Made by a program: the position numbers and the translations under genes
The notes under the pieces: generated by a model
Told to the model about the DNA's origin: nothing
Databases searched by the model: none
Seen by the model: only the letters and a program-made list of their open reading frames with translations
Source of the DNA: Ruditapes philippinarum
Lineage: Eukaryota
Reading direction: 5' to 3'
Length of the DNA stretch: 64,000 bases
Assembly: GCF_026571515.1 (NCBI RefSeq)
Contig: NW_026857783.1
Location: 50,878-114,877, forward strand
In this document: positions 8,095 to 61,289 of the stretch, piece by piece
Position numbering within the stretch: the stretch's first letter is position 1
Layout of the letters: each line of letters opens with the position of its first letter

Positions 8095-9420
8095 ATTTAA
8101 TAAAAAGTTTAAGAGTTTCAATGACAATGTCATAAAAAAACTGAGAGGATTAAAGCATAGTGATCCTAAATCTTATTGGAGTTTATTAAATACATATTCT
8201 TCTGATAAAAAAGTGATAATAAATAAAATAACTAATGAGGTTTTCCATGAGCATTTCAGTAATTTGAATGCAGATATTTTAAGAAATGAAAATGACGTAG
8301 ATAATTTAACAACTTACCAATGTTTAATGAGGCACTGAATTCGCAATTTACTGAGCAAGAAATAGATAAGGCTATAAAGGCGCTTAAGAATAATAAAAGT
8401 CCATCTATATTTGATAATATTCATTAATGAGTATCTCAAAAAAACTCCTGATAATCTGCTGGCTGTACTTACGCTATTTTTTTTAACATTATATAGACTC
8501 GGGTATCTTTCCGGATGTGTGGAGCAAGGGAGTTATCTTACCATTGTATAAAAATAAGGGGATATTAATGATCTGGATAATTACAGGGGCATAACAATAC
8601 TCAGTTGCTTTGGAAAACTTTTCACTTCGGTACTTAATAACAGATTAAATGACTTCTTGAAATCAAACAACATTCTATGTGAAGACCAAAGCAGGTTTTC
8701 AGGAAAGCATTATAGTACTGTTGATCACTCATATTTTCATTTAAAACTTTCTAGTGGACGTTAATCTAGCACATGGAAAAAAGTTGTATTGTACATTTTG
8801 TAGATTTATCGCAAGGCCTTTGATTCTGTTAATCGCACTGGCCATGTGGCATAAATTATTAAGTTACAAAATTGATCGGGAAAGCTTTTAAAATAATACT
8901 CAATATGTATGACAAAGCAAGTCATGTGTTAGTTCGAATAATTTACAATTTCAGATTTTTCACTAGTCATACTGGGAGTAAGACAAGGTGAAAACTTATC
9001 TCCAATATTGTTTTCTCTTTTCTTGAATGATCTAACTAATTTTTATAGTTTGATAAATATGAAGGTTTGCAGTTTCTAAAAGAACATATAAATGATAATG
9101 TTAAGTAATGATGAAATGGAAGTTTTATCTTAAACTGTATTTACTATTGTATGCGGATGACACTGTAATATTGTCAGAGAGCTCTCAGCAGCTTCAGTTA
9201 GCATTAAACGCTATGTTCTGACTACTGCAAGCTTTCGAATCTTGAAGTAAATTCAAATAAAACCAAAGTTATTTTATTTTGGAAAAACCAAGAGAGGTTT
9301 GCGTAATATGCCTAACTTTCACTATGAGGGGACTGTCCTTGAAATTGTTGAGCATTTCTCATTTTTAGGGTTCAAATTTTCATTTAATTAGTAAACTTCA
9401 GCAGAACTAAAACATTCCTT
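8095..9420 (+). pseudogene. Decayed non-LTR retrotransposon (LINE) ORF2 / reverse-transcriptase fragment
   Basis: Three-frame translation gives RT motifs broken by stops and frameshifts: 'FTEQEIDKAIKALKNNKSPS', 'YRGITILSCLGKLFTSVLNNRLNDFLKSNNILCEDQSRF', 'FVDLSQGL...', 'NLSPILFSLFLNDL', 'LYADDTVILSESSQQLQLALNAMF', 'FLGFKF'. Confidence 0.75.
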
Positions 9421-10606
9421 ATTGGATCAAGCCCGTTAAAGCAATGTTTTTCTGTAATTAGGAAATCTTAGGATACTTTTTTTTTACCAATAGATATGCA
9501 ATTACACTTTGTTTGATACAATGATAGCACCCATTTTTTTTATGGGTTGTGAAGTTTCGGGGGTGTTGAAGATGTGAGTGTTGTGGATGAATTTCAAATT
9601 TAAAATACCTAAAGGATAATTCATATGTACAGGTTAAACTTTTTCATCGATTGTTGGTGGCTTGGCTTTGTTTTCTTTTTGTCTCCAATGCTATGATTTA
9701 TGGGAGTTGGGTATTACCCCATTTCAACAACAAATTAAAAGTAGAGTTCTCAATTACTGGGGTAAATAGTTAATTCTAAACATGATAAGATAGTCAGCAT
9801 TCTATATAGAACAACTTCATAATTTATATACTCTGAAATAATATTAATCAGATTGGGGTCTGTTTTGTTCGAAATAATTTAAATAATCTTTTTTTGGATT
9901 GTCGCATTTTTGGATAAATTATCAAAATGTGGATCTCCTGCTTCATTCAAGAAATACTGTCAACTTAAGATTGCGTGATCATTTTATGCAAAATTGGAGA
10001 GTACAATTAATAATTCCTCTCAGTAAAATGTTAAATTACAGGATTTATAAAACAGGATTTTTGTTTTGAACCATACCTCAGCAAGTTAACCTATGAATTT
10101 AGCTTTAATTCTCTTTAAATTTAGAAGTCATGAATCACAAACTTCCATTGAAAAGGGAAAGGTTTATGATATTCCAAGAGAACTTAGAACTTGTAAAACA
10201 CTATGCTACCAGGTAACTCTTTTTAGGCGACCGAAATTCCATTATTCTTTTTGAATGTTCACATTTAGTCAATACAAGAAAGCTGTATCTTGAAAAAAAT
10301 GATTAACTATGAACGTCCAAGTACTTTTAAAAATTTGAAAAATTAATGAACCATAGTAATAAAGATATCCTTTTAGGAAAACTGCCATCATTTTGCAAAA
10401 TTATTAAGTTATTATTTAAATAAAGTTAGCTTTTTAGAATTATGTATTTTTTTTCTCTTTGTTTTTTTTCTCGCAATGATTTTTGATTTTTCTCTCTCAG
10501 TCCTCCATTATCAGTGGCAATTATTACAGTAATTTTATTACATCATGGAGTTGTATGACCATTTATAATTTGCCATTTTGTAGTATTTTGTTTTTACATA
10601 TTATTT

Positions 10607-13158
10607 CACGCCCGTTTAACTCACAACGAGTGAAAAATGTCCATCGGTTAAAATGTTGTGAGCAACTGCCGTTCCTCGTTGTGAGCACCCATCTTTGACG
10701 TGTGACACGATAAACAAGGTGAGTTTTTCATATTTTTTTAAGATTACAGACATTTATATAAAATATCGGAATGCAGTTAGCTAGCGATGTGTTTTTCGAG
10801 TATGCACATGTAAAGATATTGCCTGTTGGTCGACAATTTGATGGAAATATCGTGCGACTCAGTCACTCGGGGTAGCTGGAAAACTGGAGATATCTTCTCT
10901 CCGGACCAAATTTAACATCGAAAAACGTCGATTCTGGTGACGTTTTGTGCATTCTAACCTTAAACAGATGCCCACAAGTCTTCAGCGTAAATTATAATCT
11001 GAAAGTCTTCATAGAAACGAAGATATACCCCTTTTTGCTTTAATCCTCGTTGTAGCACCATAACCTCGTTGTGAGCAAGACAAGCGCAGTGCGTGTATGG
11101 TTTCAATATGTATTTCAGATGGTGAAAAATATAATTTTCAATCTACCAAAGCAATTTAAACGTTTTTGCACAGCAGCATTTCCTTGCAAAGACGTTGTGC
11201 ATACCCCAAAGGGAGTATTTATATTAGTTTTGAACTGTCCGTCTGTCAGTCCGTCAATCTGTCCGAAAACTAAACATTGGCCATAACTTCCTTATTAGTA
11301 AACGGATTTGATTCATATTTGAACACAACATTCCTTAGCACAAGACCTTCCTTTACGACCTGTATTTTTTACCTTGGCCCCTGAATGGCCTTACTTGAAG
11401 GTCAAATTGTCCCAAAACTTAAAAATTTGGTCATAACTTCCTTATTAGCATACGGATTCTACTCATATTTTGAAACAACACCCCTTTAGGCAAGACCTTC
11501 AAACTGATCTGTTTTTTTACCTTGTACCCTGAATGACCTTCTAGAACATCCAAAAACTTTAACATTGGTCATAACTTCTTAATAAGTAAGTGGAATTAGT
11601 TCATATTTGGACACAATGCCCCTTTGGACAAGACCTTGTTGAATTCGTGAAGTTGAAATTGTGAATTCATGAAGTTGAAATCGTGAATTCATGAAGTTGA
11701 AATCGTGAATTCATGAAGTTGGAATCGTGAATTCGTGAAGTTGAAGTCGTGAATTCATGAAGCTGAATCATGAATTCGTGAATTCCGTATTTTGAAAACG
11801 GTAATGCACGAAGTTTAAATTGTGAATTCATGAAGATGAAATAGGAAATTCATGAACTTGAAATGTCCCCACCGGTCTTTCGTAATACACACACATGTGT
11901 TTATCCTGAGCTGAAGACTGACCAAGTTATGTAAAACAAGAACTATCACGGTAAGTTGACAATGCCCCTGAAGTGCTGCTTTGTCCTTTGATTTATGGAC
12001 CAGATAGATTATTTGTTTTTGGACAATTAGATCTTCAATGTGAAGGTCATTCAAGGTCAAGGTGAAATAAATATAGGTCAGTTGGAAGGTCTTGTCCAAA
12101 GGGGCATTGTGTCCAAATATGAACTAATTCCACTTACTTATAAAGAAGTTATGACCAATGTGAATTAATTCCACTTACTTATAAAGAAGTTATGACCAAT
12201 GTTAAAGTTTTTGGATGTTCTAGAAGGTCATTCAGGGTACAAGGTAAAAAAAACCAGATCAGTTTGAAGGTCTTGCCTAAAGGGGTGTTGTTTCAAAATA
12301 TGAGTAGAATCCGTATGCTAATAAGGAAGTTATGACCAATTTTTAAGTTTTGGGACAATTTGACCTTCAAGGTAAAGGCCATTCAGGGGCCAAGGTAAAA
12401 AAATACAGGTCCGTAGGAAGGTCTTGTGCTAAGGGATGTTGTGTTCAAATATGAATCAAATCCGTTTACTAATAAGGAAGTTATGGCCAATGTTTAGTTT
12501 TTCGGACAGATTGACGGACTTACAGACGGACAGTTCAAAACTAATATGCCTCCCTTTGGGGTATGCACAACGTCTTGCAAGAAAACGCTGCTGTGCAAAA
12601 ACGTTTAAATTGCTTTGGTAGATTGAAAATTATATTTTCACCATCTGAATTACATATTGAAACCATACACGCACTGCGCTTGTCTTGCTCACAACGAGGT
12701 TATGGTGCTCACAACGAGGATTAAAGCAAAAAGGGGTATATCTTCGTTTCTATGAAGACTTTCAGATTATAAGTTACGCTGAAGACTTGTGGGCATCTGT
12801 TTTAGGTTAGAATGCACAAAACGTCACCAGAATCGACGTTTTCAATGTTAAATTAGGTCCAAAGAGAAGTTGTCTCCAGTTTTCCAGCTACCTCGAGTGA
12901 CTGCGTCGCACGGTATTTCCATCAAATTGTCCACCAACAGGCAATATCTTTACATGTGCATACTCGGAAAACACATCGCTAGCTAACTGCATTCCGATAT
13001 TTTTATATAAATGTCTGTAATCTTAAAAAATTATAAAAAAACTCACGTTGTTTATCGTGTCACACGTCAAAGATGGGTGCTCACAACGAGGAACGGAAGT
13101 TGCTCACAACATTTTAACCGATGGACATTTTTCACTCGTTGTGAGTAAAACGGGCGTG
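10607..13158. mobile_element. Large foldback (FB-like) element: ~1.03/1.07-kb inverted arms (10607-11637; 12088-13158) around a 450-bp spacer holding a 22-bp minisatellite
   Basis: The arms are near-identical reverse complements from 'cacgcccgtttaactcacaacgagtgaaaaatgtccatcgg' to its rc 'ccgatggacatttttcactcgttgtgagtaaaacgggcgtg'. Each arm has 3 copies of a ~150-bp subrepeat ('ggccataacttccttattag..'), a (gaca)-like tract and many 'ctcacaacgag' mini-palindromes. The spacer 11641-11866 is (gtgaattcatgaagttgaaatc)n with EcoRI sites. ORFs 10483-10698, 11071-11286, 11815-12099 and 12436-12621 are spurious. Confidence 0.9.
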
Positions 13159-15059: not shown

Positions 15060-15780
15060 TTGTGACGAATCACCACGAACGTCATGACAATATGAGCCGC
15101 GTCATGACAAAACCAACATAATGGGTTTGCGACCAGCATAGATCCAGACCATCCTAAAACAATTATTTCGTAAATTTGGTAATTGTTTAAAGGAACATTA
15201 TGCCTCAGAAATGATTTTATTTCTATTTCTCTAATCCTTTATTTTTGGTGTTCTGTTTAGTGTTTCTTCAAATGTACTCGTAGGCATATTACTGGACTGT
15301 CTTTTACTACTGCTGCTTTTTGGCAATTACTATTATTTTAATTTTAGTGACTTAGTATTTGGTATGGAAGTCAAAATACTACTTTGTTATCATTTTGCTA
15401 CTTTTATGACAAATAATTTCACTTTCATTGTACTTCTACAGTGAAATGCATCTATATGCTTTTAAACCGTTACTAGTATTTAATCCTTACAAAACTAGTG
15501 TTTACCCTTTCTAAAGAATGGAAAGTATATTCCTTTCTAAGGCAAAATGTGTCTTTAATAAAACAGAAATAAACGACACGATATACACTTTAATCTTTAG
15601 TAAACTCTCCAAAATAGATATAATTAAGCAGATGATTTTTAAATAACAGATGCTGTAAGATGCAATAAATCTTCGTTTGATTTCTAAACGAACGCGTGGT
15701 ATAGTAATTATACTGTCTGACAACAAATCAAAGGGCTGCAAGTACTATTCTCTTCTACTAAAATTACAAATATTTTCGGG
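15060..15780. repeat. Paralogous block A: the uninterrupted copy of the sequence at 27040-27235 + 29010-29420
   Basis: Long near-identical stretches, e.g. 'ggtatggaagtcaa[a/c]atacta', 'gaaatgcatctatatgcttttaaaccgttactagtatttaa', 'aaacgaacgcgtggt[a/g]tagtaattatactgtctgac'. Copy B is split by ~1.77 kb of LINE sequence. Confidence 0.85.
15093..15150. mobile_element. Hairpin-MITE family, truncated copy (left arm only)
   Basis: 'gagccgcgtcatgacaaaaccaacataatgggtttgcgaccagcatagatccagacc' matches the left arm of the full copies at 29715-29931 and 61083-61289. Confidence 0.7.
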
Positions 15781-16139
15781 GTAAGAGTTTAAAGCAGCAT
15801 ACTTCTAGATTCCTGCTAATTCATGCGTTAGTCAATAGTCATACTATAGAAATATGTTGATGAATTCTGCAAGATCAGTTTTTATCGCAGATAACTTGTA
15901 AAATCATAATTTGAATGTTTTAATCCTTTTATCTTTTTTTTTAATTCTTAGTACATTTTCCTCATGCTTGATTTTCTTGAAATATTTTTCGCTCATATGG
16001 AGGCATGCAGCTTTAAACCAAGGCCCGGTATATGCCATGTTGTACACTTCAATAAAACTTGCATATTTATGGATGTATCTTGGACTTTTTTCCGATGAAA
16101 ATGATACTTATATCGGTCAAACGAATTAGATTGATCCCA

Positions 16140-16640
16140 TGTATTTTCTAACTTTAATTTCGTAGGATCATCTACGAGCAAACATAAGAATGTCACTGAG
16201 CCATCGTATTTTCAGCACCTACTGTACAATCGACCATCCAACACACAAAGGGTTCTCTCGATTTTAAATAATGTATTGAAGAGTGTTGAAAATATTTAGA
16301 GGATATTTATGGTGGCTGATTTGTGCCATTCGTTTTTCGCCTGTGTCTCCGCTAAGCGAAAGTTAAAATTGCGGGGGAGCGGAGCGAAAACATGCTAATA
16401 AGCGGGCGCGGGGGAGATAAAAACATTACCGAGCATAAAGCAACTAATGTGATGTAGATATTCAAAAAGCTATATCAATAAATAAATACCATTGAAATCA
16501 ACCAAAAGGTACTACTTGCAAATATTATTCATAATAAAACTTCTAAGTATTTTGGATAATTGAACTTTGGAAGCATCAGTGTCAACAATATCATCTAAAA
16601 TAATACTATACATGTATATATATAATTTATGGTCAAGAAC
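16140..16640. repeat. Paralogous block A': copy of 30890-31740
   Basis: 'gtcactgagccat(t)cgtattt', 'ggatatttatggtggctgatttgtgccattcgttttt(t)cgcctg', 'aaagcaactaatgtgatgtagatattcaaaaagctatatcaataaataaatacc' are shared. Copy B carries an extra ~295 bp at 31200-31495 flanked by a duplicated 'aat[ac]aa[gt]cg' motif. Confidence 0.8.
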
Positions 16641-17663
16641 AGTGTTTAAAAAGACATCATAAGTAGCGGTAAACAAAATGATTCGATGATATTAACGACA
16701 AAAAAAAGGTATCAAATACCAGTAAGGTTAACTGGCGGTTAATTAATTTATTAAACAGCAGTTTCAAATCAGAGATGAGGTGGAAAGGTTGTTACAGAAA
16801 AAAGAATAGTAATTTTATCCCCTGTTAAGAAATCTGTTCACGATTTTGAACTTGCTAACTTGATGCAATATGAACACACAAAAATTGCTGTGACTCTATA
16901 TTCAGAGAAAATCATTTTTTTTCAGTGCCTGGTGTTTATCTTTTCATTTTCTCTTTCAAGAGTAGCTTTCTACTCTACTTTTTTAGGTTAAAATAATTTT
17001 ATACAGTGGCAAATATGTATCACACAAATCTAATAACAACCATTTTTTGAATTTGCAATGACATCTAAATTGGAAAGGTGAACACAATATAATATACCTA
17101 CATTTTAAATATTTTTAAAAGATACCATTTACAATATTCTACGTAATTGCGGTTTATTTTAGTATAATCCATACTGAAATGCTTTCATGGTCATTAAAAA
17201 TGTTTTTTTTTAAAACAATTTCTACTGATATGTAGATGCTCAGTTAGCTTAATTAAACAAACACGCCTAAAATCAACGAAAAGGTATTACTTACAGATAG
17301 TAGTCATAGTAACTTCTTAGCCTTTGGAGGCATCAGTGTCAATAATCTTTTACTGAAATGATACTTTATGGCATTTAGAAATATTTTAGGATAACTATTA
17401 CATTTTTTTACGATCAAGCACAACATATAAATGTCATCATTAGGTGACTGTAACAGTAAACAAAATATACGGTGATAATCAACAAAGAAATATGGTATCA
17501 AATTCCAAAAGAAAGTTCAGGACAAGGTTGACTACCGGTTAATTAGATATATAGATAAATTAAAAATGCGATATCAAATCGAAGATGAGGTGGTTTGTTT
17601 TAGACTGTATAAATATGAAATCTCACATACTTATATTTTACTTAAAACTTTGCGTTTAACAAA

Positions 17664-19058
17664 ATGGAAGTTTTACAGCTATTCTTTTATTTTAGGTGTG
17701 TTCTCATAGTGAAAGGACTTAACAACATGCTTACTAATGAATCGTTATCAAATTACAACAATTCAGATCTAGTGTCTACTTTGATAGCAGAACAAAGTCG
17801 AATCTGCCCTTATATTGCTTTGTGTCATGCATCAAACAGCTCTTCTTTTCAATTTGATAGATCTATGAGCAAATTACCGTGCTGCAAGGCATGTTCGTGT
17901 CAGGACACTTGTGTTCAAGAAGGTTCTTGTTGCCCGGATTATTTCAATGCAGAAGGTATAGATTTTAAGGAAAACCAGACATCACATGATAATAATAAAA
18001 AACCTGTTAGTGCCAGTGCTAACACGACGTTAACACATACACAAGAATGTGTTAAAGTACAACATGGTCGAATACAAAATCAAGACGGTTACATGATGGT
18101 AGCATCATGTCCACCCAACTTTGACGACATTGAAGTAAAAAGGAAGTGTGAAATGAAGATACATCATAGCAACCCCTTCGACATAATTGACAACGTCCCA
18201 GTAACATACGAAGATCAAAGACAAACATATAAAAATCAATACTGCGGACAATGTAACTTGCAAGAAGATGTATTTCCTACATTTTGGCATGTAACGCTCG
18301 TGTGTGATATACATTACTTTTCTTTCAAGTCCATTTCCGCGGTTAATCAATTTGAATTCATAGAGGCCGTTCTATTTACAATGCCTGGGAAGTGTAACGT
18401 AGTCTTTGAGTATGAAACTACAAATATCAGCTTAAATGCAGAACTTCGACAGTGTACATACGACACAATGATCGATAACTGCATCAAAGAACATTCGAAC
18501 ACCTTTCTTCAAACAATGTGCAAGAACTATTTCTGGACTATTACGGTGCAAGTCATTTCTGAAAGAAAAATATACAAAAACTATGCATGCCTGCTCTGTA
18601 ATGAAATAAGCTTCAGGGATAGATGTACAGTAAACCAAGAACTCAAACCAGTTGTTATTCAATTTACATCTATTTTGAACATCACTCGGAAACCATCAAC
18701 TTTCGTCGATACTTCGAAAGATGAACAACATATTATCAATCGTTATTTTCCAAACACAGACGGGGAAATTCGCTGCAAAAAAGGATTCGCACATGATATT
18801 AGAAAGGTATTGAAAATAAAAAAAGTTGTATCGAGTATGTCTTTGTACCCATTGCTTTATTCAACAAACACTTTTGTTATGATTATGAAAATACCCGGAA
18901 CTCCATTAAAGTATGCTATTTTACGTGGCGTCCTGAGTCAGGCTTATTGTTTTTCTCGTTTAGGGCACACGCTTTTTATTACTTGGGGACCTTACGCCGC
19001 TTTTCATGGAATGGCACGGAAGTGTCACATTGAAGGTTCCATGATAACCACCGTATGA
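17664..19058 (+). CDS. Uninterrupted 464-codon ORF for a cysteine-rich (27 Cys) protein with N-terminal hydrophobic leader and a somatomedin-B-like motif (CCKACSCQDTCVQEGSCCPDYF). Probably a large exon or single-exon gene for a secreted/extracellular domain
   Basis: It is the longest ORF in the window, and 1.4 kb without a stop is very unlikely by chance at ~66% AT. The C-x-C-x3-C-x5-CC-x-D-Y spacing matches the SMB domain pattern, with N-glycosylation sequons and a hydrophobic C-terminal stretch. Antisense ORFs 18105-18350 and 18432-18662 are spurious. True start and possible splice exits (e.g. AAAG|GTATTG near 18806) are unresolved. Confidence 0.5.
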   Translation: MEVLQLFFYFRCVLIVKGLNNMLTNESLSNYNNSDLVSTLIAEQSRICPYIALCHASNSSSFQFDRSMSKLPCCKACSCQDTCVQEGSCCPDYFNAEGIDFKENQTSHDNNKKPVSASANTTLTHTQECVKVQHGRIQNQDGYMMVASCPPNFDDIEVKRKCEMKIHHSNPFDIIDNVPVTYEDQRQTYKNQYCGQCNLQEDVFPTFWHVTLVCDIHYFSFKSISAVNQFEFIEAVLFTMPGKCNVVFEYETTNISLNAELRQCTYDTMIDNCIKEHSNTFLQTMCKNYFWTITVQVISERKIYKNYACLLCNEISFRDRCTVNQELKPVVIQFTSILNITRKPSTFVDTSKDEQHIINRYFPNTDGEIRCKKGFAHDIRKVLKIKKVVSSMSLYPLLYSTNTFVMIMKIPGTPLKYAILRGVLSQAYCFSRLGHTLFITWGPYAAFHGMARKCHIEGSMITTV

Positions 19059-26138: not shown

Positions 26139-26865
26139 ATGTAAAATCTTACGGGTAACTGTCATCATCATTATCATCATTTGTATCATCTTGTGATGGC
26201 ATCTGGATGTTTAGCTTTTTACAGATATTGTGTCACACAGCACATGCAATGACTACCCTTTAATAGACGTAGGACAATAGTTAAATGTAAAAAAAATCCC
26301 AAAAAGTCTGTCTTTGGTTTATCCTTACCTGATTTTTGAATTACAAAATTAACATAACTCATGACAGTTTTAAGTATTTTTCTTTTACAGTAACTAGATA
26401 AATATGTTCTTAATTTTTAGGTTTATAGTTGGTTGACATGCAATTTTAGTAACTACGGTTATATTGCTTACAACTGTTCATATACCATCATACTTAATGC
26501 AAAACATCAAATTCATTGTTAAAATTAAAAGATGCCCTTTCTTTGGGTGATTTTTTTTCTGCAAATAATAGTATTAATGTAAAGATAATTACTTTTGAGA
26601 AGGTATAAATTTAAGCATTTTGACTGGTATTTGTAGGGACCTTATTTACAGCATGTTGGTGATAGTTCTTAAATTCTAAATCTTGATCAATGGCCTATAA
26701 TTTTATGGTCAAAGTTATATAGACATTTTATATATTATATATTGATATTTTTTAAAGCTGTTTGTATATATAATGGAGGGTTTTATTGCCAAGAACCATT
26801 TATGTATGGGTTCATAACATTTCAACATTTTTACATCCAATATTTTTACAACCAATCCAGACCAT

Positions 26866-27027
26866 GCGTCCGCGAAGTCTGATCAGAATCCATGCCGTTC
26901 GCTTACAAACCCTATTACAAGTAGAGAAACTGATGGCGAACAGCATGGATCCTGATCAGACTGCGCGGATGCGTTGGCTGGGCACCCATTATGTTGGTTT
27001 TGTCATGGCGCGGCTCATATGTCGTAA
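26866..27027. mobile_element. Hairpin-MITE family copy (left arm truncated)
   Basis: Right arm '...ggatcctgatcagactgcgcggatgcgttggctgggcacccattatgttggttttgtcatggcgcggctca' is complete. ORF 26786-27049 is spurious. Confidence 0.75.
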
Positions 27028-27234
27028 TTTGATAAAGGCGTGTCCGTGAAGCATATTCTTAAACATTTATTTCGTAAATTAAGTAACTGTTTGAAGGCAT
27101 ATTATGCCTCAGAAATGATTTTATATCTATTTCTCTAATCCTTTATTTTTGGTGTTCTGTTTAATGTTTCTTAACAAGTACTCGTAGGCCAATTGCTGGA
27201 TGCTGCCTTTTGGCAATTAGTATTATTTTAATTT

Positions 27235-29010
27235 TAGTTCAAAGTTCAAATTTTATTTACAAATCAGCATTTTGTTTTTGCCAATACATACAAAACATAT
27301 ACATACATAGATCTTGAAATATAGCACACATAACTACAAGATACATATATAAACATTTCAAATATCAGTATTAAATTAACAAATAACAAAGTAGTGTTAA
27401 TAATATATCATTAATTTCGTCTATTTATCATTTGTTCCATGGTATTAGATCGTAAATCAAAAGCTTTTTCCAAGTACTTACTTATCAGTAATAATCTATG
27501 TTTATTATTAGATGACTTGATATAATAAAACTTATTCAGTGTGGGAAAAGATGCATTACGAATAAAAAGTTTTCTTAATTCTGAATAAAATGGACAACAA
27601 AGCAGGAAATGATATTCTGATTCTATCATGTTTCGACTACAAAGTTTACATATTCTCTCATTTCTGTTTAAACCTATATATCTGCCAGTTTCAATTTCTA
27701 GAGAATGGAAACCAAGTCTGAAACATGTCAAACGTTTTCTTAACTTGTCATTTTGTATCAATTTAGATATTCCTCAAAACAAAAATTTGATTTGAAATTT
27801 CTAAAATAAAAGAGTTTTGGCATGTTATTTATTTGCTCATGCCAATTTTGTATAATTGATCTCTAAGGCGTTGTTTAAAAATTAAGCTAAAATCAGAAAT
27901 AACATTATAGTTATGTAACAAATATGAAAATCCTAACTCATTAATAATAGTATGAGCTTGCCTAGCTCAGCATTTATTAACACATTGATCTAAATACATG
28001 CTATATATAGGCGAATGCTGATTATTAACAATTTTATTCCAAATCTTTAATGATCTTTCTTTACACAAAATTGACAAAGGAAATTTACCAAGTTCTCCAT
28101 AGACAGCACAATTAGGAGTTTGTTTTTAACACCAAGTACATACTTATAAAATTTTATTTTCAGTTTATCAATATCTTTATATTTATAAATTCCCCATACA
28201 TCTGAACCATATAACAGAATTGGAGTTATCAGACTATCAAAAAGGTGCAGTTTAGTTTTAACATCTAGCTTTATCTTGTCAAAAATACCCAATAGACTGT
28301 TATATGCTCTAAGGCCTTGCTCTGCAAGAGTCTTAGTTGCTTCAGAAAAGCTACCCGTATAAGAAAATTTTACACCTAAATATGAAAAATTATCAACAAT
28401 ATCTACAAACTGACCGTCAATATTTATACTAAAATTATGTACAGATTTTCTTCTTTCAAAAACACAAACTTTAGTTTTATTAACATTAATTTTAAGCCCC
28501 TATTTTGACGAATAACTATATACATTATCAACTTGAGCTTGCAAGCTCTCTGGACTTGTAGTGAAAAGCACGATATCGTCTGCAAAAAGTAGCAAATATT
28601 TAGACAAGAATTCAAGGTCACTATTCGACATTTTGTTAAGATCTATACATTTTTCAATATCATAAAAAAAGAATAAATAGCAGGGGAGATAATGGCTCTC
28701 CTTGCTTTAACCCAAGAGTTACGTCGAAAAATACTGACATATTCATAAAAGCATTAATTTTTACACATGACACTACTAAGACAAATATATTGCCTTTAAC
28801 ATATTTATCATTTTACAACTAATACCAGTATCTAACAGCTTAATCCATAACGCATCTCTTATAACTGTGTCAAAAGCCTTTTCATAATCAATGAAAATAC
28901 AATAGAGTTTAGAATTTTTGCTAAAACTTTCTGAATTATGGAATGAAGAATAAAAATAGCATCAGAGGTTGATCTCGAATCTCTAAAACCAAGCTGAATA
29001 TATAGTGATA
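27235..29010 (-). mobile_element. 5'-truncated CR1/L2-like LINE fragment (RT plus C-terminal zinc-knuckle), inserted into paralogous block B
   Basis: Minus-strand ORFs give RT motifs: 'SRSTSDAIFILHSIIQKVLAK' (28859-29080), 'LFDSLITPILLYGSDVWG' (28047-28292), and the tail 'LTCFRLGFHSLEIETGRYIGLNRNERICKLCSRNMIESEYHFLLCCPFYSELRKLF' (27411-27761). The 3' end on plus coordinates (27250-27330) carries an (atacata)-type microsatellite, as CR1-like elements do. The flanks 27040-27235 and 29010-29420 are contiguous in block A. Confidence 0.85.
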
Positions 29011-29714
29011 AAGTATTTGGTATGGAAGTCAACATACTATTTTGTTTACATTTTGCTACTTTTATGACAATTAATAACACTTAAAGTGTTACTTCTGCAG
29101 GTGAAATGCATATAACATGCTCTAAAACCGTTACTAGTATTTAAACATAACAAAACTCGTTTTTACTATTCTAAAGAATGAAAAATGTATTCCTTTCTGA
29201 GGCAAAAAGTGCCTTTAATAAAACAGAAATGAACGATACGATATACACTTTAATCTTTAATAAACTCTCCAAAATAGATAAAATTAAGCAGATGATTTAC
29301 TGTAAGATGCTATAAATCTTCGTTTGATTTCCAAACGAACGCGTGGTGTAGTAATTATACTGTCTGACCTCAAATCATAGGGCTGCAAGTATTTTTCTCT
29401 TCTACTTCACTTTAAATAACAAATATTTTAACTTTGTTGGTTTGCCGTGAAACCAAACAAACAAATTCAAATAATGTGATTTGTTCAATTAGTGATTACC
29501 TTCTTTATTTGTGAGAAGAAGCGCTCAATGAGTACGTTACCAGATGTGAGTATGGTGATCAGTGAATATTGTTCACAGGTTGAGTAGTTTGCATATGATG
29601 AGTATTATTCACTTTTTAACATTGTTTATGATGCAAAAAATGTTCAATCCATCATGTATATGTGGTGACGTTAAGTCACGGAAAGACAAGTGTTCAGTGA
29701 GCTTTTTCGTGAAA

Positions 29715-29931
29715 TGAGCTGCGTCATGACAAAACCAACATAGTGCGTTTGCGACCAGCATGGATCCAGACAAGCCTGCGCATCCACGCAGTCCGATCAG
29801 GATCCAAGCTGTTCGCTATCAGTCTCTCTACATGTAATGGGGTTGGTAAACGAACAGCATGGATCTTGATCAGACTGCGGGATCCATGCTGGTCGCAAAC
29901 GCACTATGTTGGTTTTGTCGTGACGCGGCTG
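29715..29931. mobile_element. Hairpin MITE, complete copy
   Basis: 'tgagctgcgtcatgacaaaaccaacatagtgcgtttgcgaccagcatggatccagac...' folds back on its rc '...ggatccatgctggtcgcaaacgcactatgttggttttgtcgtgacgcggctga', with arms ~100 bp. Both flanks read 'gaaatg'. ORF 29743-29967 is spurious. Confidence 0.85.
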
Positions 29932-30154
29932 AAATGCAGTTGTTTGTTGCAGCAGATACAGAAATAATGGCATTGCAGCAGAAACAACAAGTTCTTAACG
30001 CTGAGTATTGGAACTTGAAACTTGTAAACTTGTAGTCAGACAGCGTTTACAACTGCACGACAGCGTCAGAGTTGATCTTTGATGTTTGTTTATAATGAAT
30101 ATCACATTAATTTTCAACAGATTAGTTTAAATTTTAAAAGCTAAAAAGTTGATC

Positions 30155-30675
30155 TCTCCAGTACTGTGGCATAGAGGTGACATTGTCAATTTTATTTTAT
30201 CTCGTGGCCACGACTTATTATCTTGAGGCCTCAAGATATTATATCGTGACCACGACTTATTATCTCATGGCCACGACTTATTATCTCAAAATATTATCTC
30301 GTGGCCACGAGTTACTATCTTGTGGCCACGAGATAGTAAGTCGTGGTCACAAGATAATAAGTCGTGGCCACAATATAATAAGTCATGGCTACGAGATAAT
30401 TATGTCGTGGCCACGAGATAATAAGTCGTGGCCATAAGATAATAACTCGTGGCCACGAGATAATATCTTGAGGCCACAAGATAATAAGTCGTGGCCTCAA
30501 GATAATTACTCGTGGCCACAAGATAATAAGTCGTGGCCACGAGATAATAACTCGTGGCCACTAGATTATAAGTCGTGGCCACGAGATAATATCTGGAGGC
30601 CACAAGATAATAAGTCGTGGCCACGAGATAAAATATAACTGCAAATGTCACCTCTATGCCACCGTACTCCAGGGG
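30155..30675. mobile_element. Palindromic-minisatellite foldback/MITE: ~30-bp TIRs around a self-complementary array of 22-bp units
   Basis: TIRs are 'tctccagtactgtggcatagaggtgacatt' and 'aatgtcacctctatgccaccgtactccagg'. Inside, (tcgtggccacgacttattatc)n switches to its rc (gtcgtggccacgagataataa)n at a symmetry centre near 30335-30345, so the whole ~520 bp is one long hairpin. ORFs 30177-30693 on both strands (LVATTYYLVA..) are spurious. Confidence 0.85.
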
Positions 30676-32029
30676 CTCTCTTTTTACTGTCATTTCGTAA
30701 GTATTTTTGTATCTTTACGCGTACCTTTAAACTTCATAAAATCATAAGTGTATTCCACAAAACGTTTACTTTAGTTTTTTCTTAAATTTACGTTAAAATA
30801 GTTCGTAATCTTCAATGCAGGTTTTAAGAATTATTCAATAAGTGGCATTTTTGAAATATTTGATAAAATAAACTGTTCTATTAGACAATCAAACTTTATC
30901 AAACTAAACTTTAATATCGTAAGGTCATCTACGGACACCGAAGAATGTCACTGAGCCATTCGTATTTTTAGCGCCTGCTGTACCATCGGCCATCCATTAC
31001 ACAATGGGTTCTCTCGATTTCAAATAATGTATGCATAGAGTGGTAAAAAGAACCAATAGCTTTTATATTTTGAAAATATTTAGGGGATATTTATGGTGGC
31101 TGATTTGTGCCATTCGTTTTTTCGCCTGCGTTTCCGCCATGGAAAAGTAAAAATGGCGGGGCGCGGAGCGAAAACACGCTAATCAATCGGAACATCCTTG
31201 GCTATTATCTATAAATAACCTCAGAAACAATACGGATTGAAAGTAGTTCTACCACGTATAATAATGTACTGTTTGCTTTTGTGTCTATGAATTCACTTAT
31301 TTTAGGTGGACTTCTAATACATATTTTGAAAATCAATTTGTCAATAACTCCCATCATTAAAATAATATTTGTTTACATGCGTAGGTAAGACCAAAATACC
31401 GCATCCGTTCTTTGTATTAATTCATACCATTGTGTTCGAGGTCCTTAATCGAAGAATGACGAAAAGGGCCGAAAATTTGCGATTTCACTTAAATAAGTGC
31501 GCACGCGGGGGAGATTAAAACATTCACCGTCGCCTCACGGAGCGAAAAGCAACTAATGTGATGTAGATATTCAAAAAGCTATATCAATAAATAAATACCC
31601 TTGAAATCAACTAAAAAGTACTACCTGCAAATATTGTTTATAGTTAACTTTTTAGTATTTGGAAAAATTGAACTTTTGGAAGCATCAGTGATCATTGTCA
31701 ACAATCTCATCTAAAATAATACTATATATATATATATATATATATCCAGAATACGAACCAAATACAACGATCCGTTAGCGGCGCATTTTTATACGAACGA
31801 CCACACAGTAAATGATTTTTCAATAATGGGGCTTGAAAAGCTATACGGGAATGAACAATACAGAAAAACAATAGAAAATTTGTGGAAAAATAAATTAAGA
31901 ACCTATAGACCGTATGGAGTTAATACAAAAGAATAACGCGGCAGACGGCAACCAACGCCACGGCGGGCGTCGTTCATTGACGTTACGTCACTTCCATTGT
32001 TTTGTTTTGATATATTTGTATATAGGGTT

Positions 32030-35270: not shown

Positions 35271-38200
35271 GTAAGTGAAACAATGTGATCATTTTCAAAT
35301 TAAAGCTGCATGCCTCCAGATTCATGCTAATTTTCATGAAAATTGTGAGAAAGTATTTCGTACAAATATTGCAATCGGCACTTATAATTCAAGCAAATTA
35401 CCAGAAAGGTCAAAATATGCAAAAATAGCCCTTACTGCGTTAAACGCAGTAGAAATATAGTAATAAATACTGCAAACTTTGTCTTTAAACGGACGAAACA
35501 TTTAAACTGAAACACAAATCTTGACTCTTTTTACCTTTCATAAAGCAGCGCGCCTCCAGATTCATGTTAATTTTCACGAAATGTTGGACATGTATTTAAA
35601 AAGTAAAATATTGTGAAGTGATCAAAGAAAGTAATTTACACATTACAAACAGCTTTTTGAATCCACGCAAATTATCAAAAAGTGGTCAACATGTGCAAAC
35701 ACAGCCCTTACTGCGTTAGTAACGCTGTAAATATATGGTGATAAAATACTGCAAAATCAGTCTTAAACCGCACATTACATGTCAAATACAACTTGTTACT
35801 GGAATGTTTTTACCTCTTAAAATTCTAGTATATTTTCTTCATTATTGGTTATCTTGAAATATTTTGGCTAATCTGGAGGCGTGCAGCTTTAAAATCTTAG
35901 TACATTTTTATTATGTTTGCATGTTTTGATATATTTTGGCTCTTCTCAAGACATGCAGCTTTAATATAATATAGTCATTATAATAACAGATCAGTGGGTC
36001 ATTAAAGGTTAAAGAGCATGCTTTAAAGACTGTCTGTCTTTTGTGAGCTATAAAAAAGGGTAAATAATTCCTTTCCTCCCATGGTATTTATGTCTTCCCT
36101 GTAATAAGAGTTATAAGCAGTTACATGAAAATCATTGATGCAAAAAAATCATTGATGCAAAGCATCAAATGCGACGCCAAGAAATATTTGATCAAGACTT
36201 GCACCTAAATACTTAACAGAGGAGGTGTACTTTATATTGATCATAACCATTACATGTGACCTGGAGGATAGGACCCTGTTTAAAGATGCGTCAAATATAA
36301 CCAATCACTAAAATTCTCATGCCAAAAGAGAAAATTTCTTCAGATTTATTTTACCAGATACAAGGATAACTGAGTCATTATCATATAATAAAATATTGCT
36401 TAGGGTTACAGAAATACCATTGACAAATATTAGACATAAAAGAGGACCTAAAATAAACCTCCTTGGAGACACCATAGGTACTCGGAGATCTAAGTGCCTT
36501 TATACTGCTGTGAATGGGACCCAAAGGTAAATAACCATTCGCAAATTAAAGAATACATGGTTGATCATTATAATGAAGGGAAATGTTCCTTCTATTTTGT
36601 ACAAGAAGGAAATAATTTTATTAAAATGATAAAAACCATGTTATCTTCAACACATCAAATACTTTTTGAAATTTATTTCAAACAAGTACTATCGTTTGTT
36701 AAATGCTAGTACGAGAAGATAATCTATTTCAGACTTCTCTTGCAGAGCTGTATAACCGTGGAATTAATTACTACGCGATGTTTCATGTTTTCTTTTTAAA
36801 AACAGGTTTTAAATCTAAGGAGTCAATTTGAATATTTCAGTCCACTTTTACCCAACTTATCTGCATTTCTTCTACAACAGTACATACATGTACTGCATGG
36901 AATATCTTCTAAAACTTCCACAGATAAATACCTATATATAAATGGCATATCTCCTAATCTATTACTATCGTGGTCTGAAGTTTAAACTTCACTTTGAACA
37001 CTCCTTCTTTCTTCTTTTAAGATACATGTATGTATGTTTTTGAAGTGTTTCATTTTTCTTTTCTTTTCTTTTTTAAAAAATAATTTACTAACTGTAGGGA
37101 AACCTCTTTAAAATTTGCATTATTCACAAGAAATGGTATTTTTACTTTCCTTGCTATTTAGGAGTACTTTGAAAGGCGGAAGTCTTTGAAGTCTAAAGTA
37201 TTCCTTTTACACTTAAATGTTGATTCTTGTTTTAGTATGATATGACAATGCCTGGGTAGAATCTAATCTTATCAAGCTGTTTATTGGAAGGACTGAGGAT
37301 GTGCTTGTATAACACCCTATGGCAAATTACACCATAAACATTTTGGAAAGTCATAAATTACATAAACTACTAGCAAAACTGTTTAAGATACACACGGCTC
37401 ATCAAATTATTTTATGATTTCTAGAAAGAAACAGAATCTTTTTTATCCTACCATTAACATATATAGCATATATGTCCTAGTCAGTCTCAGTTTGAGAATT
37501 AAGGATTATCAAATATTGTAATTTAAAAAAATAAAGAAACAACTATTAATTATTAGAAAAGAACAGATCATCCTTTTATTTGTAAATAGTACATCATTAT
37601 ATTCCATAGACCATACAATTTCCAAGCAAATAATGATCATACTATTTGTCTCTAAAAATATCGTAAACTATTTGTACTTTATTCATAAAAAGAGTAGATC
37701 AACAAATTCGTAAAATCAGTTAAAATATTTACTACTGTCCATTTAGTATTTCAAATTATTTACCTGGTTATTATAATAACACCAATAAAATATTTCTATT
37801 TCTATCATTTTCAACATAAATCTTATAATGAGGTTAAATTGATAGAAATTATTAATTTTACAAAGTACAAAAAGTAAAAATAATAAATTAATTATTAAAT
37901 TTATAAAATGCTATTTAAAACATTCCTTAATTAAACGGCCACATTCGCTGCCGCAGCAGCGAGTATTTGTGGGTGTGACTAATCAGTGATGTAAAACTGT
38001 TAGGTCTGTTATAAACCCTGAACTATAAATAGCATGCAGTGTTAACCTGGAACAAAAACAGCTGATTTTACACAGGAGAGGTTTAATGGATGTTTTAATA
38101 TAATTTTTGAAGTCATTTTTTCTTCTTTTTTTTTCACTGGAATGCTGTATGTTTTCATCAAGTCAGACAATTATATCAAAATCCAAAAGATGTGCCTTAC

Positions 38201-49525: not shown

Positions 49526-49689
49526 TATAATAGACAGTTACTTTTAATTGTACAGGTATATTTGCTTGGTTTTTTAACATGTTATTTTTTGTATTTTATA
49601 ATTTTTGCTCTTTTTAAGCCAATGGCCAAGTAATATCTGATGATACCCATGTACCCTGAAACATTCGTGTTCTTCAGTAATCATATCCT

Positions 49690-50445
49690 ATACATTCATT
49701 TTCTTACTTAGTCACGCCCCTTACAATTATTTTCATGGTCATGCCATGTAGATCTATTTTTCTTACTTTTCATAGACTGTACATCCATATTCTTACACGG
49801 TCACCTTCTTTACAAAGATGTACTTGGTCACGTCCTGTACATCTATGTTCTTACTTGTAATATCCTATACATTTATGTTCTTACATTGCCACGTCCCTTA
49901 CAAACATGCGCTTGGTCACGTCCTGTACATATATATTCTTACCTGTAATGTCCTATACATTTATGTTCTTACATGGCCACGTCCCTTACAAACATGTACT
50001 TGGTCACGTCCTGTACATCTATGTTCTTACTTGTAATATCCTATACATTTATGTTCTTACATTGCCATGTCCCTTACAAACATGCGCTTGGTCACGTCCT
50101 GTACATCTATGTTCTTACTTGTAATATCCAATACATTTATGTTCTTACATTGCCATGTCCCTTACAAACATGCGCTTGGTCACGTCCTGTACATCTATGT
50201 TCTTACTTGTAATATCCTATACATTTATGTTCTTACATTGCCATGTCCCTTACAAACATGCGCTTGGTCACGTCAAGTACATTTATATTCTTACTTGTAA
50301 TATCCAATACATTTATGTTCTTACATGGTCACGTCTCTTACAAGCATGTACTTGGTCACGTCCTGTACACATATATATTCTAACCTGTAATGTCCTATAC
50401 ATTTATGTTCTTACAGGGTCACGACTCTTAAAAACATATAATATA
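49690..50445. repeat. 88-bp satellite (~8.5 copies), with an extra diverged ~1.3 copies at 51950-52065
   Basis: Unit 'cacgtcccttacaaacatg[ct][ga]cttggtcacgtcctgtacatctatgttcttacttgtaatatcctatacatttatgttcttacattgc'. ORFs 49818-50592, five overlapping, are spurious. Confidence 0.9.
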
Positions 50446-51039: not shown

Positions 51040-51560
51040 CTGTCACAGAACTGGCATTTTCATTTCAATACATCTAAATTCTGGAAACAAAGTGATCCCT
51101 CGGAAACATTAATTACAACAAATTAACATAAGAATTTCAGACTCGGTTTGATTGAGTCTGTACATGAGGGATAATGTATAAGTGCAACATCCCTCACACC
51201 CCCTAGCACCGGCTGAGCGGTACTCAATTCTCAACACTTTATAGTGTTGGCATCAATGACCCCGAAGGACCAGAAAATATAACAACACTGAACTTTTTAC
51301 GGCTGCCACACGGCACTTGACACCTGCTGTTGTGAAGTACAAAATTCTGGAAACAAAGTGATCCCTCGGAAGCATTAATTACAACAAAATAACATAAGAA
51401 TTGCAGACTCGGTTTGATTGAGTCTGTACATGAGGGATAATGTATAAGTGCAACATCCCTCACGCCCCCTAGCACTGGCTGAGCGGTACTCAGTTCTCAA
51501 CACTTTATAGTGTTGGCATCAATGACCCCGAAGGACCAGAAAATATAACAACACTGTAGT
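51040..51560 (+). mobile_element. Tandem pair of ~290-bp elements whose 3' ends are hairpin + 7 nt + CTAG (Helitron-terminus-like), diverged relatives of the 4309/19134 repeat
   Basis: '..cagactcggtttgattgagtctgtacatgagggataatgtataagtgcaacatccctcaca(c)cccctagcac[ct]ggctgagcggtactc..' at 51131-51240 and 51391-51500. ORF 51239-51475 is spurious. Confidence 0.55.
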
Positions 51561-51790: not shown

Positions 51791-54150
51791 ACTAGAGCAA
51801 GTTTAAAACAAAATTTTCTTGCAATATAGTTGTAATAATATTCACTATAGTATGTTTTGGAATGGAAATTCTTATATCACTATATTGGCGTGCATTACAA
51901 TTTTTTAACATATCATTAACATAGCAAGACCAGTTCTTACATGATCTACATGTACTTGGTCACGTCCTGCACATATATATTCTAACCTGTTATGTCCTAT
52001 ACATTTATGTTCTTACATGGCCAGTCCTTTCAAACATGTACTTGGTCACGTCCTGTATGTTCTTTTTACACTTAAAAGAAAAAGTTTTTATATGTATAAA
52101 ATTATGCTTATAAAAATTTTTCAAACATCAAAGAAAATGTAAAATATTAAATGCAAATATTTGTGCACATTATATGTAATCATTAAAATCTATACATTCA
52201 TTTCGTACTGAAAGTTTGACTTATACTTTATAGAAAATAAATTTTTGATTTACCTCCCTTTTTTACATGAAATGTTAAATTCGGTAATATTTTTATATAT
52301 TATGCTTCTTGGAACTTACATATTGATAAATCTTAATTGGAGCATCATATTGATGATATAAAACCATAAAAATATTGTGTAACAGGAAGGATCTTTAACA
52401 AAATCATTGCAAAAAGTCTTTTAAAATTACATTATTCTAAGCATGTTACAACCGAGGTATCTCGTCTTATTGGAAACGTAGAGCAGGATTTTTGACAATT
52501 TATTTAATACATATTATATACCTCACCAATTTTTACAAACTTACTTGATCTGAAATATTTATCTAGTTATATCTACCGCCCATGCATTTTGGTAAAAATA
52601 GAGTTTAAGACAATTTATTGAACACACCATATATATCTGACCAATATCTACATGGTTATTTGATCTTGAATATATCATTTACTCAATCTGCTGGCAAATA
52701 TGGCAGATCGGTCTCTTTTTTTATCTTAAGTTTCAGAAATCTAACCGAAAGATTTCTCTCCATCACCAGCATATATTATCTTTATTAGCAACTAGTTGAT
52801 TAAGCCTTTTCATGCAACATCCCCTGAACACGCCAATTTTAAATCAATGAGTAGCTTAATTGGTGGAAATAATCATTTTAACTGCATATTATATTTTATA
52901 AAAAGAGATTTTTTTTCCAATGAAAAATATAAAATATCGTGCGCTTCATCACCATAACATTTTATTTTTGACGCATTCTTGTTAGTTTCTATAAATGTGA
53001 TAGTCTTATGTGATGTGTGACACGAAAAAAAGTCAAGATATTTGTATTTGATAAAGGAAGCAATTAAATCAAGTTATGTTTTAAATCATATAATTATAAT
53101 ACTTTTTTCGTAATCTTACGTATGTTATTAATCTTATAATGCAATATAAACTACCTTGAAATTTCTGGCAAAATGAAAAAATAAAACACTTACATCTTTT
53201 TAAACATGTATTTCTTTTTTCAAAGCATATTTACATATAACAAACATACAATAAAACTATAAAAAATGTCATTTAATATGTATCATAAAAGGGTGGTTGC
53301 TATACTTTTCCGTATAGTAATTTATCAAGTATGCTTCTGTATTAATTCGATATGGTGAAAAGATTACATAATTTAGTTTCGATAAAAGTGCGAATACTTG
53401 GAAGGTTTGTAATAGAAAAATTAAACGTATCTTTAAAGAAATAGAGTCCTACGGAAAAACCCCTTTTATTTTAATATGGGTTTTAAAACTGTTTTATTTT
53501 CCCTTTTAAAAAATTTAAATTTTTCTGAAGTAAATAAAAATTTTTTATCTAAAGATAAAACTCAAAAATAGGGTTTTTCACCCTTAACAAAAAAAAATAA
53601 GACAAATTTTTGTGAATTAAACTTGACAATGTTTTTAAAAAAAAGACCGTTTTCCTAACTTAAAAATTATGCAAACCTTAAAAGAAAAATAACACAAAAA
53701 AGAAAAAAATAGTGAATTTGAAAAAAAAATTGGAAAAAAGGAAAAATTCCCGAATTTGAAAAAGTTTCCATTTTCCCCTAAATTTAAAACCTTTAGTATT
53801 TTTAAAAAAATGGGGGCAAAACAAATAAATTGGAAAAATACAGTGGAAACTTAAATTTCAGAAATAAATTTATTATTACCCTTTAAACTTAATTTTGATG
53901 CGCGCTTTTTATTAGACACTTTAATTGTGGTAATGAAATATCCAAAAATAAAATGTTAAACTCTTTAAAACTGGCAAATTCTCTACAGGGGCGAGGTGAA
54001 CAATTTCTGAGTTGACCAGTTTAAATATCAACTATACCTTATACATATGTATACATTTAATTAGACAGTCTGTGTCGCAGCGTTTTAGGAAACTCAAAAT
54101 GTGAAACATTTTATTCAGGCCCATACAAAGAGAGTTATAAAACATATAAA

Positions 54151-61082: not shown

Positions 61083-61289
61083 TGAGCCGCGTCATGACAA
61101 AACCAACATAGTGTGTTTGCGACCAGCATGGATCCAGACCAGCCTGCGCATCCGCGCAGTCTGATCAGGATCCATGCTGTTCGCTATCATTTTCTACTTG
61201 TAAAAGGGTTAATAAGCGAACAGCATGGATTCTGATGGGATCCATGCTGGTCACAACGCACTATGTTTGTTTTGTCGTGACGCGGCTCA
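61083..61289. mobile_element. Hairpin MITE, complete copy
   Basis: 'tgagccgcgtcatgacaaaaccaacatagtgtgtttgcgaccagcatggatccagaccagcctgcgcatccgcgcagtctgatcaggatccatgctgttcgc' plus its rc arm, ending 'cgtgacgcggctca'. Same family as 29715-29931. Confidence 0.85.

Follow-up and report, generated by a model that had tools for sequence, protein, structure and literature searches.

A 5'-truncated LINE whose sequence places it in the RTE-X clade very probably entered, by target-primed reverse transcription, copy B of a non-coding segment that already existed in two copies (A and B) in the window, i.e., the 64,000-nucleotide stretch of Ruditapes philippinarum contig NW_026857783.1 analyzed here. The RTE superfamily is common in bivalves. 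Such an insertion is an ordinary event for a repeat-rich mollusc genome and matters little beyond annotation; the pair of sites, one empty and one filled, provides a clean case of relative dating in a repeat-rich bivalve genome.

To compare the two blocks, we aligned 13-19 kb of the window with 25-34 kb by BLASTN, repeated at higher sensitivity, and obtained four collinear matches on the same strand (E-values 1e-57 to 1e-137; Table 1). The first-pass annotation had described a duplicated block, and the two copies are indeed collinear and homologous over the segments of Table 1. It had placed the start of the homology in A at 15060; the actual start is 15151, and 15096-15150 is the end of a MITE. 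The segments are non-coding and differ by 11.3% substitutions (K2P 0.123 over 1069 aligned sites), which is the divergence it had proposed to compute. At the point where B is split, copy A is unbroken and reads ...TTTTAATTTTAGTGACTTAGTATTTGG.... Copy B reads ...TTTTAATTTTAGT / TCAAAGTTCAAA... across the left junction (27238/27239) and ...GCTGAATAT A / TAGTGATAAAGTATTTGG... across the right one (29002/29003), leaving an insert of 1764 bp at 27239-29002. The interruption of B and the continuity of A were thus called correctly, with split coordinates (27235 and 29010) that were right to within a few bases. TAGT occurs twice in B, on either side of the insert, and once in A. A match of 4 bp has a probability of about 0.006 by chance, and the target-site duplication is short, 2-4 bp, with two bases that are ambiguous with the tail of the element.

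Table 1. Features of the duplicated block, the LINE insert, and neighboring elements (positions in the window)
Feature	Positions	Strand	Remarks
Block copy A, segment 1, unbroken	15151-15776	+	Empty site TAGT at 15345-15348
Block copy A, segment 2	16150-16624	+	BLASTN to B
Block copy B, segment 1	27055-29429 (27055-27238 + 29003-29429)	+	LINE between halves; p = 0.10-0.11 to A
Block copy B, segment 2	30907-31740 (30907-31183 + about 31495-31740)	+	Indel of ~310 bp between halves
A/B match 1	A 15151-15348 = B 27055-27238	same strand	83% identity
A/B match 2	A 15345-15776 = B 29003-29429	same strand	84% identity
A/B match 3	A 16150-16399 = B 30907-31183	same strand	78% identity
A/B match 4	A 16397-16624 = B 31492-31740	same strand	82% identity
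Target-site duplication, left copy TAGT	27235-27238	+	Single in A
Target-site duplication, right copy TAGT	29003-29006	+	Preceded by one untemplated base (A, 29002)
LINE copy classed as RTE-X, 5'-truncated, degenerate	27239-29001	-	ORF2 residues ~609-1141, 3' UTR, tail
3' tandem-repeat tail TTGAAC-T-TTGA(AC)	27239-27249	-	Last AC (27237-27238) shared with target, microhomology
3' box remnant, mutated	27252-27284	-	Two-stem structure then AAUAAA in the family; comparison with relatives
Family 3' anchor sequence			...GATTTGCAAATAAAATTTGAAC; LINE family of the insert
ORF2 stop codon TAA	27411-27413	-	Translation
C-terminal Cys/His motif CKLCSRNMIESEYHFLLCC (CX2CX9HX4C)	27594-27650	-	Weak Pfam zf-RVT, E = 0.039
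RT core motifs, broken by frameshifts and stops	28458-28990	-	Translation, Pfam
RT motif GFRDSRSTSD	28916-28990	-	RT core
RT motif IFIDYEKAFDTV	28863-28898	-	RT core
RT motif GLKQGEPLSPLLF (motif 4)	28663-28713	-	RT core
RT motif LLLFADDIVLF	28557-28595	-	RT core
RT motif GLKINVNKTK	28458-28499	-	RT core
Frameshifts vs L001, 1-bp deletions	near 28920, 28128, 27856, 27761	-	Alignment to L001
2-bp lesions vs L001	insertion near 28778; deletion near 28664	-	Alignment to L001
Nonsense changes vs L001	TGG>TAG near 28501; TGG>TGA near 27958	-	Alignment to L001
In-frame deletion vs L001, 9 bp	near 27980	-	Alignment to L001
MITE	29714-29930		~50-bp TIRs; flanks GAAAT/GAAAT
Palindromic foldback-like array, 21-bp units	30160-30668		Repeat search
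Indel, 308-311 bp	31184-31494		In copy B, segment 2; bracketed by aligned sequence

The insert encodes on its minus strand a reverse transcriptase (RT) and a C-terminal zinc-knuckle, as first annotated. The RT matches Pfam RVT_1 with E = 6.9e-25 in the frame-corrected protein, from position 41 of the 205 of the profile, and the CX2CX9HX4C motif recurs in every full-length relative as well as in the curated consensus of RTE-X. The protein portion corresponds to the C-terminal 47% of ORF2, with the RT from motif 2 onward; together with the 3' UTR, this amounts to about a third of a complete element. A protein search identified an independent copy in a 1998-bp contig of a JGI metagenome (sample 3300049158; hereafter L001), whose ORF is 90% identical to the insert. 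At the DNA level, L001 matches the window from 29001 down to 27227 with 95.6% identity including gaps and 97.6% at aligned sites. Toward 5' it has 192 bp more of RT sequence, exactly where the window resumes block sequence. Because L001 continues into the RT at this boundary, the 5' truncation of the insert, proposed from the window alone, is proven. The 3' end of L001 reads ...AAATAAAATTTGAAC TTGAAC TTGAAC, i.e., (TTGAAC)3 in all, and is followed by an unrelated flank, therefore the tail of the family is (TTGAAC)n. The insert has only two TTGAAC units, at the left junction (TTGAAC-T-TTGAAC, 27237-27249), where a microsatellite tail had been reported. Compared with L001, at least five indels shift its reading frame, a further 9 bp are deleted in frame, and two TGG codons have become stops. 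The copy in the window is a dead fragment.

Regions dense in repeats misassemble readily, and one might suspect that a collapse or a chimeric join placed a LINE fragment in copy B. The junctions are however clean to the base, they come with a target-site duplication and a 3' tail typical of the family, and the 5' end of the insert coincides with the loss of homology to L001. We therefore regard an assembly artefact as exceedingly improbable, and treat the interruption of B as a genuine insertion.

The age of the insertion relative to the block can be read from two distances. The LINE differs from L001 by a K2P of 0.024 over 1754 sites; the 0.123 separating A and B corresponds to about 6% per copy since their split. 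Since the block is thus far more diverged than the LINE and the empty site is exact, the data support the order already suggested by the first-pass annotation, in which the duplication of the block came first and the LINE later. The value of 0.024 needs to be read with the origin of L001 in mind. Only one host locus is common to the window and to the sample of L001: a contig of that sample (L053) matches the host ORF region with 92.4% identity (7.6% difference, dS ~0.12). Hence, L001 probably comes from a related species or a divergent haplotype, unless the L053 locus of the sample is a paralogue, and 0.024 is then an uncalibrated upper bound on the age of the insert. The reverse order would have the LINE present before the duplication and subsequently deleted from copy A. 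Nothing in particular speaks for this, beyond the general fact that short repeats can mediate deletions and that the insert lies between two TAGTs. Yet copy A retains exactly one TAGT without a single base out of place, we know of no process that removes a LINE so precisely, and the LINE is at most 2.4% from its independent copy, against about 6% of change in each block copy since the split. We give this scenario almost no credence, and retain an insertion that postdates the duplication. If the L053 locus is orthologous and the sample comes from another species, the split of the species would be far older than this particular RTE-X family. In that case, 2.4% for the LINE against 7.6% for the host locus would suggest that the family moved horizontally between bivalves or has a very conserved master that is still active, either of which we consider unlikely.

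The insert had been labeled CR1/L2-like, which the comparison of RT sequences does not bear out. Judged by its sequence, it belongs to the RTE-X clade of non-LTR retrotransposons, in the RTE superfamily, a label that rests on sequences classified in one paper (Martelossi et al. 2023, PMC10294476). In BLASTP searches against the labeled sequences of this study, the RT of the insert is 69% identical (E = 5e-93) to A.marissinica_170_LINE, which visibly falls in the group of the insert in the RT alignment of the study and is given as superfamily RTE, clade RTE-X in its Table S7. The identity is 40-45% to three other RTE-X sequences, 34-35% to RTE/BovB, 29-30% to two CR1 sequences labeled by RTclass1, 29% to L2A, and 27% to Proto2. 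The conceptual protein also aligns with residues 609-1137 of the curated S.grandis_24 RTE-X ORF2 (55% identity over 532 aa, 569 bits), a protein with Exo_endo_phos (E = 1.5e-10) and RVT_1 and no other domain; the C-terminal motif of the curated RTE-X consensus, CKMCNQNMIESEYHFLLCC, is like that of the insert. We built a neighbor-joining tree from 180 RT columns and counted support over 200 bootstraps as root-independent bipartitions. The insert grouped with its two closest RTE-X sequences in 198 replicates and with all four labeled RTE-X sequences in 170, and the RTE superfamily was separated from CR1 plus L2A in 195. Motif 4 of the RT tells the same story: in the insert it is GLKQGEPLSPLLF and a long loop separates it from FADD, which is also the RTE-X arrangement, whereas the CR1/L2 comparators have GVPQGS(I/V)LGPLLF and a short loop. 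With protein identities of only 55-69% and a tail unit of its own, the insert represents a family distinct from the labeled RTE-X sequences.

Some features could nevertheless be taken to favor a LINE of the CR1/L2 group (Jockey superfamily). The element ends in short tandem repeats after a stem-loop and AATAAA, the architecture of UnaL2 and ZfL3 (PMC4758252), and the endonuclease of its relatives weakly matches Pfam Exo_endo_phos_2 (E = 2.5e-5 for P0027 and 3.4e-4 for L002). Against this, the RT is 29-30% identical to CR1 and L2A when it reaches 69% with RTE-X, none of the 200 bootstraps placed the insert with CR1 and without RTE-X, motif 4 and its long loop are of the RTE-X type, and the curated consensus sharing the C-terminus and the 3' box of the insert is labeled RTE-X. 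A CR1/L2 membership is thus very unlikely. The tandem-repeat tail does not discriminate between the two assignments, because RTE-X relatives carry the same 3' feature.

The relatives of the LINE were found in clams (Mercenaria, Archivesica, Solen) or in clam-associated metagenomes. The search for further copies of the insert's own family returned only relatives with at most 69% amino acid identity, and no full-length copy. The longer relatives begin with an AP-endonuclease domain, marked by GDLNSRT and SDHCPI, and have no RNase H. Among them, L002 is a near-complete element of at least 5.5 kb, with a coiled-coil ORF1 of 614 aa, an ORF2 split in two, and a 290-nt 3' UTR ending in a (TTGTA)4 tail. 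Its ORF1 has no Pfam match, and the PDB matches are coiled-coil-like only, with nothing diagnostic. Searching PDB with the ORF2 sequence of a relative gave only L1 ORF2p and R2, with similar E-values, which is not discriminating.

The 3' ends of these elements share a conserved box, ...(T)GGCCAAAGGCA-loop-TGCCGATTTGCCAATAAA, found in nine related elements and in the curated RTE-X consensus. It is directly followed by two to four short tandem units, and the unit varies by subfamily (TTGAAC, TTGTA, TGAA, CTTGAAA, GTTGAA); none of these ten sequences ends in poly(A). When the boxes are folded singly, the predicted two-stem structure is intact in eight of nine and destroyed in the copy of the window. 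In the alignment, 87.5% of the cells are paired, compared with 14-57% when the partners are slid. The covariation score of 0.283 (0.192 +/- 0.037 in shuffled alignments, 9 of 500 shuffles reaching it) comes from 10 sequences and gives modest support, and in two pairs of the outer stem both partners have changed in a compensatory way (GC/UA/AU and CG/UA). Neither the window nor three related loci matched a LINE 3' element of Rfam. A stem-loop, an AATAAA-like hexamer, and tandem repeats follow one another in the same way in the L2/CR1-type LINEs UnaL2 and ZfL3 (PMC4758252), which explains the initial CR1/L2 guess. This likeness concerns the working mode of the element and not its family membership. 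Whether the box amounts to an undescribed module of bivalve RTE-X elements for recognition by the RT is a separate idea that we hold with little confidence; if true, the stem-loop, the AAUAAA, and the variable tail could be used to find SINE partners.

The locus carries all the hallmarks of target-primed reverse transcription: the insert has the tail of the family at its 3' end, is truncated at its 5' end, and lies between duplicated target bases, and the site is empty in A. From established LINE biology, the endonuclease of the element would have nicked a T-rich target, TTTTAATTTTA/GT on the + strand. Priming from tandem repeats at the 3' ends of stringent LINEs is also covered in further literature. 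Here, the (UUGAAC)n tail of the LINE RNA would have annealed through the 2-nt AC/GT microhomology, with the 3' box acting as the putative RNA element recognized by the RT. Reverse transcription would then have ended within the RT-coding region, after about 1.76 kb, and the cDNA would have been joined with one untemplated base, the A at 29002, producing the duplication of 2-4 bp (TAGT). As ORF1, the endonuclease, and RT motifs 0-1 are absent, the copy was dead on arrival. The frameshifts (at least five), the two nonsense codons, and the mutations that destroyed the 3' stem-loop were gained later.

The rest of the block is less regular than its two homologous segments. In its middle, A and B have unrelated sequence (A 15777-16149, B 29430-30906). 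Once the MITE and the palindromic array are taken out of B, 751 bp remain there to compare with the 373 bp of A, and the local score is 24, compared with 23.1 +/- 2.9 for shuffles. The middle of A contains a repeat also present at 35717-35964. The element at 29714-29930 is short, non-coding, and present in several copies, with TIRs and flanking direct repeats, as expected for a MITE; its sequence at 29717-29930 is 72.65% self-complementary over 234 aligned positions. Further copies lie at 61080-61290 (flanks ATTT/ATTT) and 26855-27022, with a partial one at 15096-15150. The window is AT-rich (67.8% A+T) and dense in repeats, and contains no tRNA or Rfam RNA genes.

The first-pass annotation had counted the MITE, the array, and a 295-bp indel at 31200-31495 as additional insertions into one paralog. 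All three are present. However, the alignment gives no basis for counting the MITE and the array as indels, because the middle in which they lie has no counterpart in A, and the indel is slightly larger and starts earlier than described (Table 1). It alone is bracketed by the alignment of A and B, and may be a gain in B or a loss from A; it shows only a 3-bp repeat (AAT), and its sequence has no second copy within the window.

The insertion had also been described as nested. This is unproven, because nothing shows that the block is a mobile element. The two blocks may alternatively belong to an unclassified dispersed repeat, or a composite of repeats, with two copies or more, in which case the LINE would be a transposable element within another one and the 12% would date members of a family. 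This is a possibility that we take seriously without favoring it. The homology starts at the same sharp point in A and B, beside different sequence: on the side of B, 32 bp separate the block from a complete MITE (26855-27022), a configuration that differs from the MITE end found next to A. The two homologous segments enclose unrelated cores, a third, diverged partial copy covers the distal ~150 bp of segment 2 (17222-17368), and the window is saturated with repeats. Conversely, there are just two substantial copies in 64 kb, 12 kb apart and with the same orientation and segment order; the block has no TIRs, tRNA head, coding capacity, or tail; and its strings were unmatched in curated bivalve TE libraries. 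A 23-mer common to A and B also had 0 hits in metagenome contigs, which says little, as coverage of the host is thin there and even an orthologue was missing. The strings of the MITE and of the foldback array were likewise absent from the curated bivalve TE libraries. We also considered a tandem gene duplication as the origin of the block, and rejected it since no paralogue of the host ORFs was found downstream of block B.

For annotation, one lesson is that a LINE cannot be called CR1/L2 from its tandem-repeat tail and its Cys/His motif at the C-terminus, since both are also present in bivalve RTE-X elements. The conserved 3' box could help to define the 3' ends of RTE-X elements in molluscs and to search for dependent SINEs. 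Among known systems, the bivalve RTE-X elements (PMC10294476; RepBase RTEX-n_CGi) resemble the insert in RT sequence (69% and 55% identity), its relatives share their ORF2 layout (APE, RT, and C-terminal CX2C...H...C, with ORF1 upstream), and the 3' box is the same (GGCCAAAGGC...GCCGAT..GCC..AAATAAA), without poly(A). The insert differs from them by its TTGAAC tail unit, by a protein identity of 55-69%, and by its dead, truncated state. UnaL2, ZfL2, and ZfL3, "stringent" LINEs of the L2/CR1 type, have a comparable 3' stem-loop, hexamer, and tandem repeats that prime reverse transcription (PMC4758252), but their RT belongs to a different superfamily, and the 3' box of the insert has no Rfam match and only a putative role in RT recognition. 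RTE/BovB elements belong to the same superfamily in the published scheme and share APE and RT, tandem-repeat tails, and frequent 5' truncation. Their RT is however only 34-35% identical to that of the insert, whose relatives are longer (at least 5.5 kb for L002), with an ORF1 of 614 aa and a Cys/His domain at the C-terminus.

Two contigs of the JGI metagenome sample 3300049158, designated L001 and L053, match the window. The first carries an independent copy of the 5'-truncated RTE-X element (the LINE) and matches it at 97.6% (window 27227-29001), whereas L053 matches the host ORF region (window 17578-18875) at 92.4%, with a dS of about 0.12. The LINE is more alike between the two sources than the host locus. 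L053 may be a paralogue; alternatively, the difference may reflect recent shared activity or horizontal transfer. The window holds a second, much older reverse transcriptase (RT) remnant, which has 27-38% identity to RTE-X comparators, the top match being RTE-X A.kagoshimensis_48 (all features in the table).

The host ORF begins with a segment resembling a signal peptide and has only three homologues among 5.8 billion proteins, all of them with the Pfam domain PF28443 (DUF8401). It is probably an exon of a secreted or membrane protein with a lineage-restricted distribution. A third, partial copy of segment 2 of the duplicated block lies upstream of the ORF, at a distance of about 300 bp.

The window is also rich in other repeats. 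Members of one MITE family, about 215 bp long with TIRs of ~50 bp (GAGCCGCGTCATGACAAAACCAACATAGTG...), occur within the 64 kb as three complete copies and a solo end; the family had no match in the curated bivalve libraries searched. The foldback-like element ends in inverted termini of ~27 bp (AGTAC[T/G]GTGGCATAGAGGTGACATT) and shows no clear TSD. The arms of the large palindrome are about 95% complementary, contain satellite-like units of ~150 bp, and flank a spacer of about 450 bp with a 22-bp tandem repeat (11640-11864). Near the right end, a further pair of homologous segments overlaps a satellite-like array of ~145-bp units (54206-55317).

Features of the window and of the full-length RTE-X relative at locus L002
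Feature	Position	Strand	Description
RT remnant	8466-9565	+	much older than the LINE
Large palindrome	10607-13158		arms about 1 kb: 10607-11637, 12086-13158
MITE copies	26855-27022, 29714-29930, 61080-61290, 15096-15150
Partial copy, block segment 2	17222-17368		distal ~150 bp; diverged, 72-81%
Cys-rich ORF	17664-19058	+	464 aa
RTE-X 3' box	27252-27284		window copy
Foldback-like element	30160-30668		inverted arrays of 21-bp unit (TCGTGGCCACGAGATAATAAG)
Minisatellite	49683-50437		88-bp unit, 8.5 copies, 87% identity
Tandem duplication	51076-51556		266 bp, 97% identity
Homologous segment pair	53317-55654, 63012-63998		72-88% identity
ORF1	L002 2855-4699		614 aa

The bivalve relatives of the LINE share a conserved 3' box, found at the 3' ends of L001 and of the related loci L002, L005, L007, L008, L015, L016, L024, and L030. 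It adopts a two-stem fold with compensatory changes, matches no Rfam family, and is followed by AATAAA and then by a tandem-repeat tail particular to each subfamily. ORF1 of the L002 element encodes a coiled-coil together with a segment, 'MRDNLLFFNFPEQ', that resembles an RRM; this ORF1 had no match in Pfam or PDB. In the protein search, four proteins (P0030, P0057, P0066, and P0082) with 39-52% identity to the LINE ORF2 are deposited as 'reverse transcriptase family protein' from Candidatus Thiodiazotropha MAGs; most likely, they are LINEs of the lucinid clam hosts contaminating the symbiont bins. The curated S. grandis RTE-X consensus includes the end of an ORF1 homologous to that of L002.
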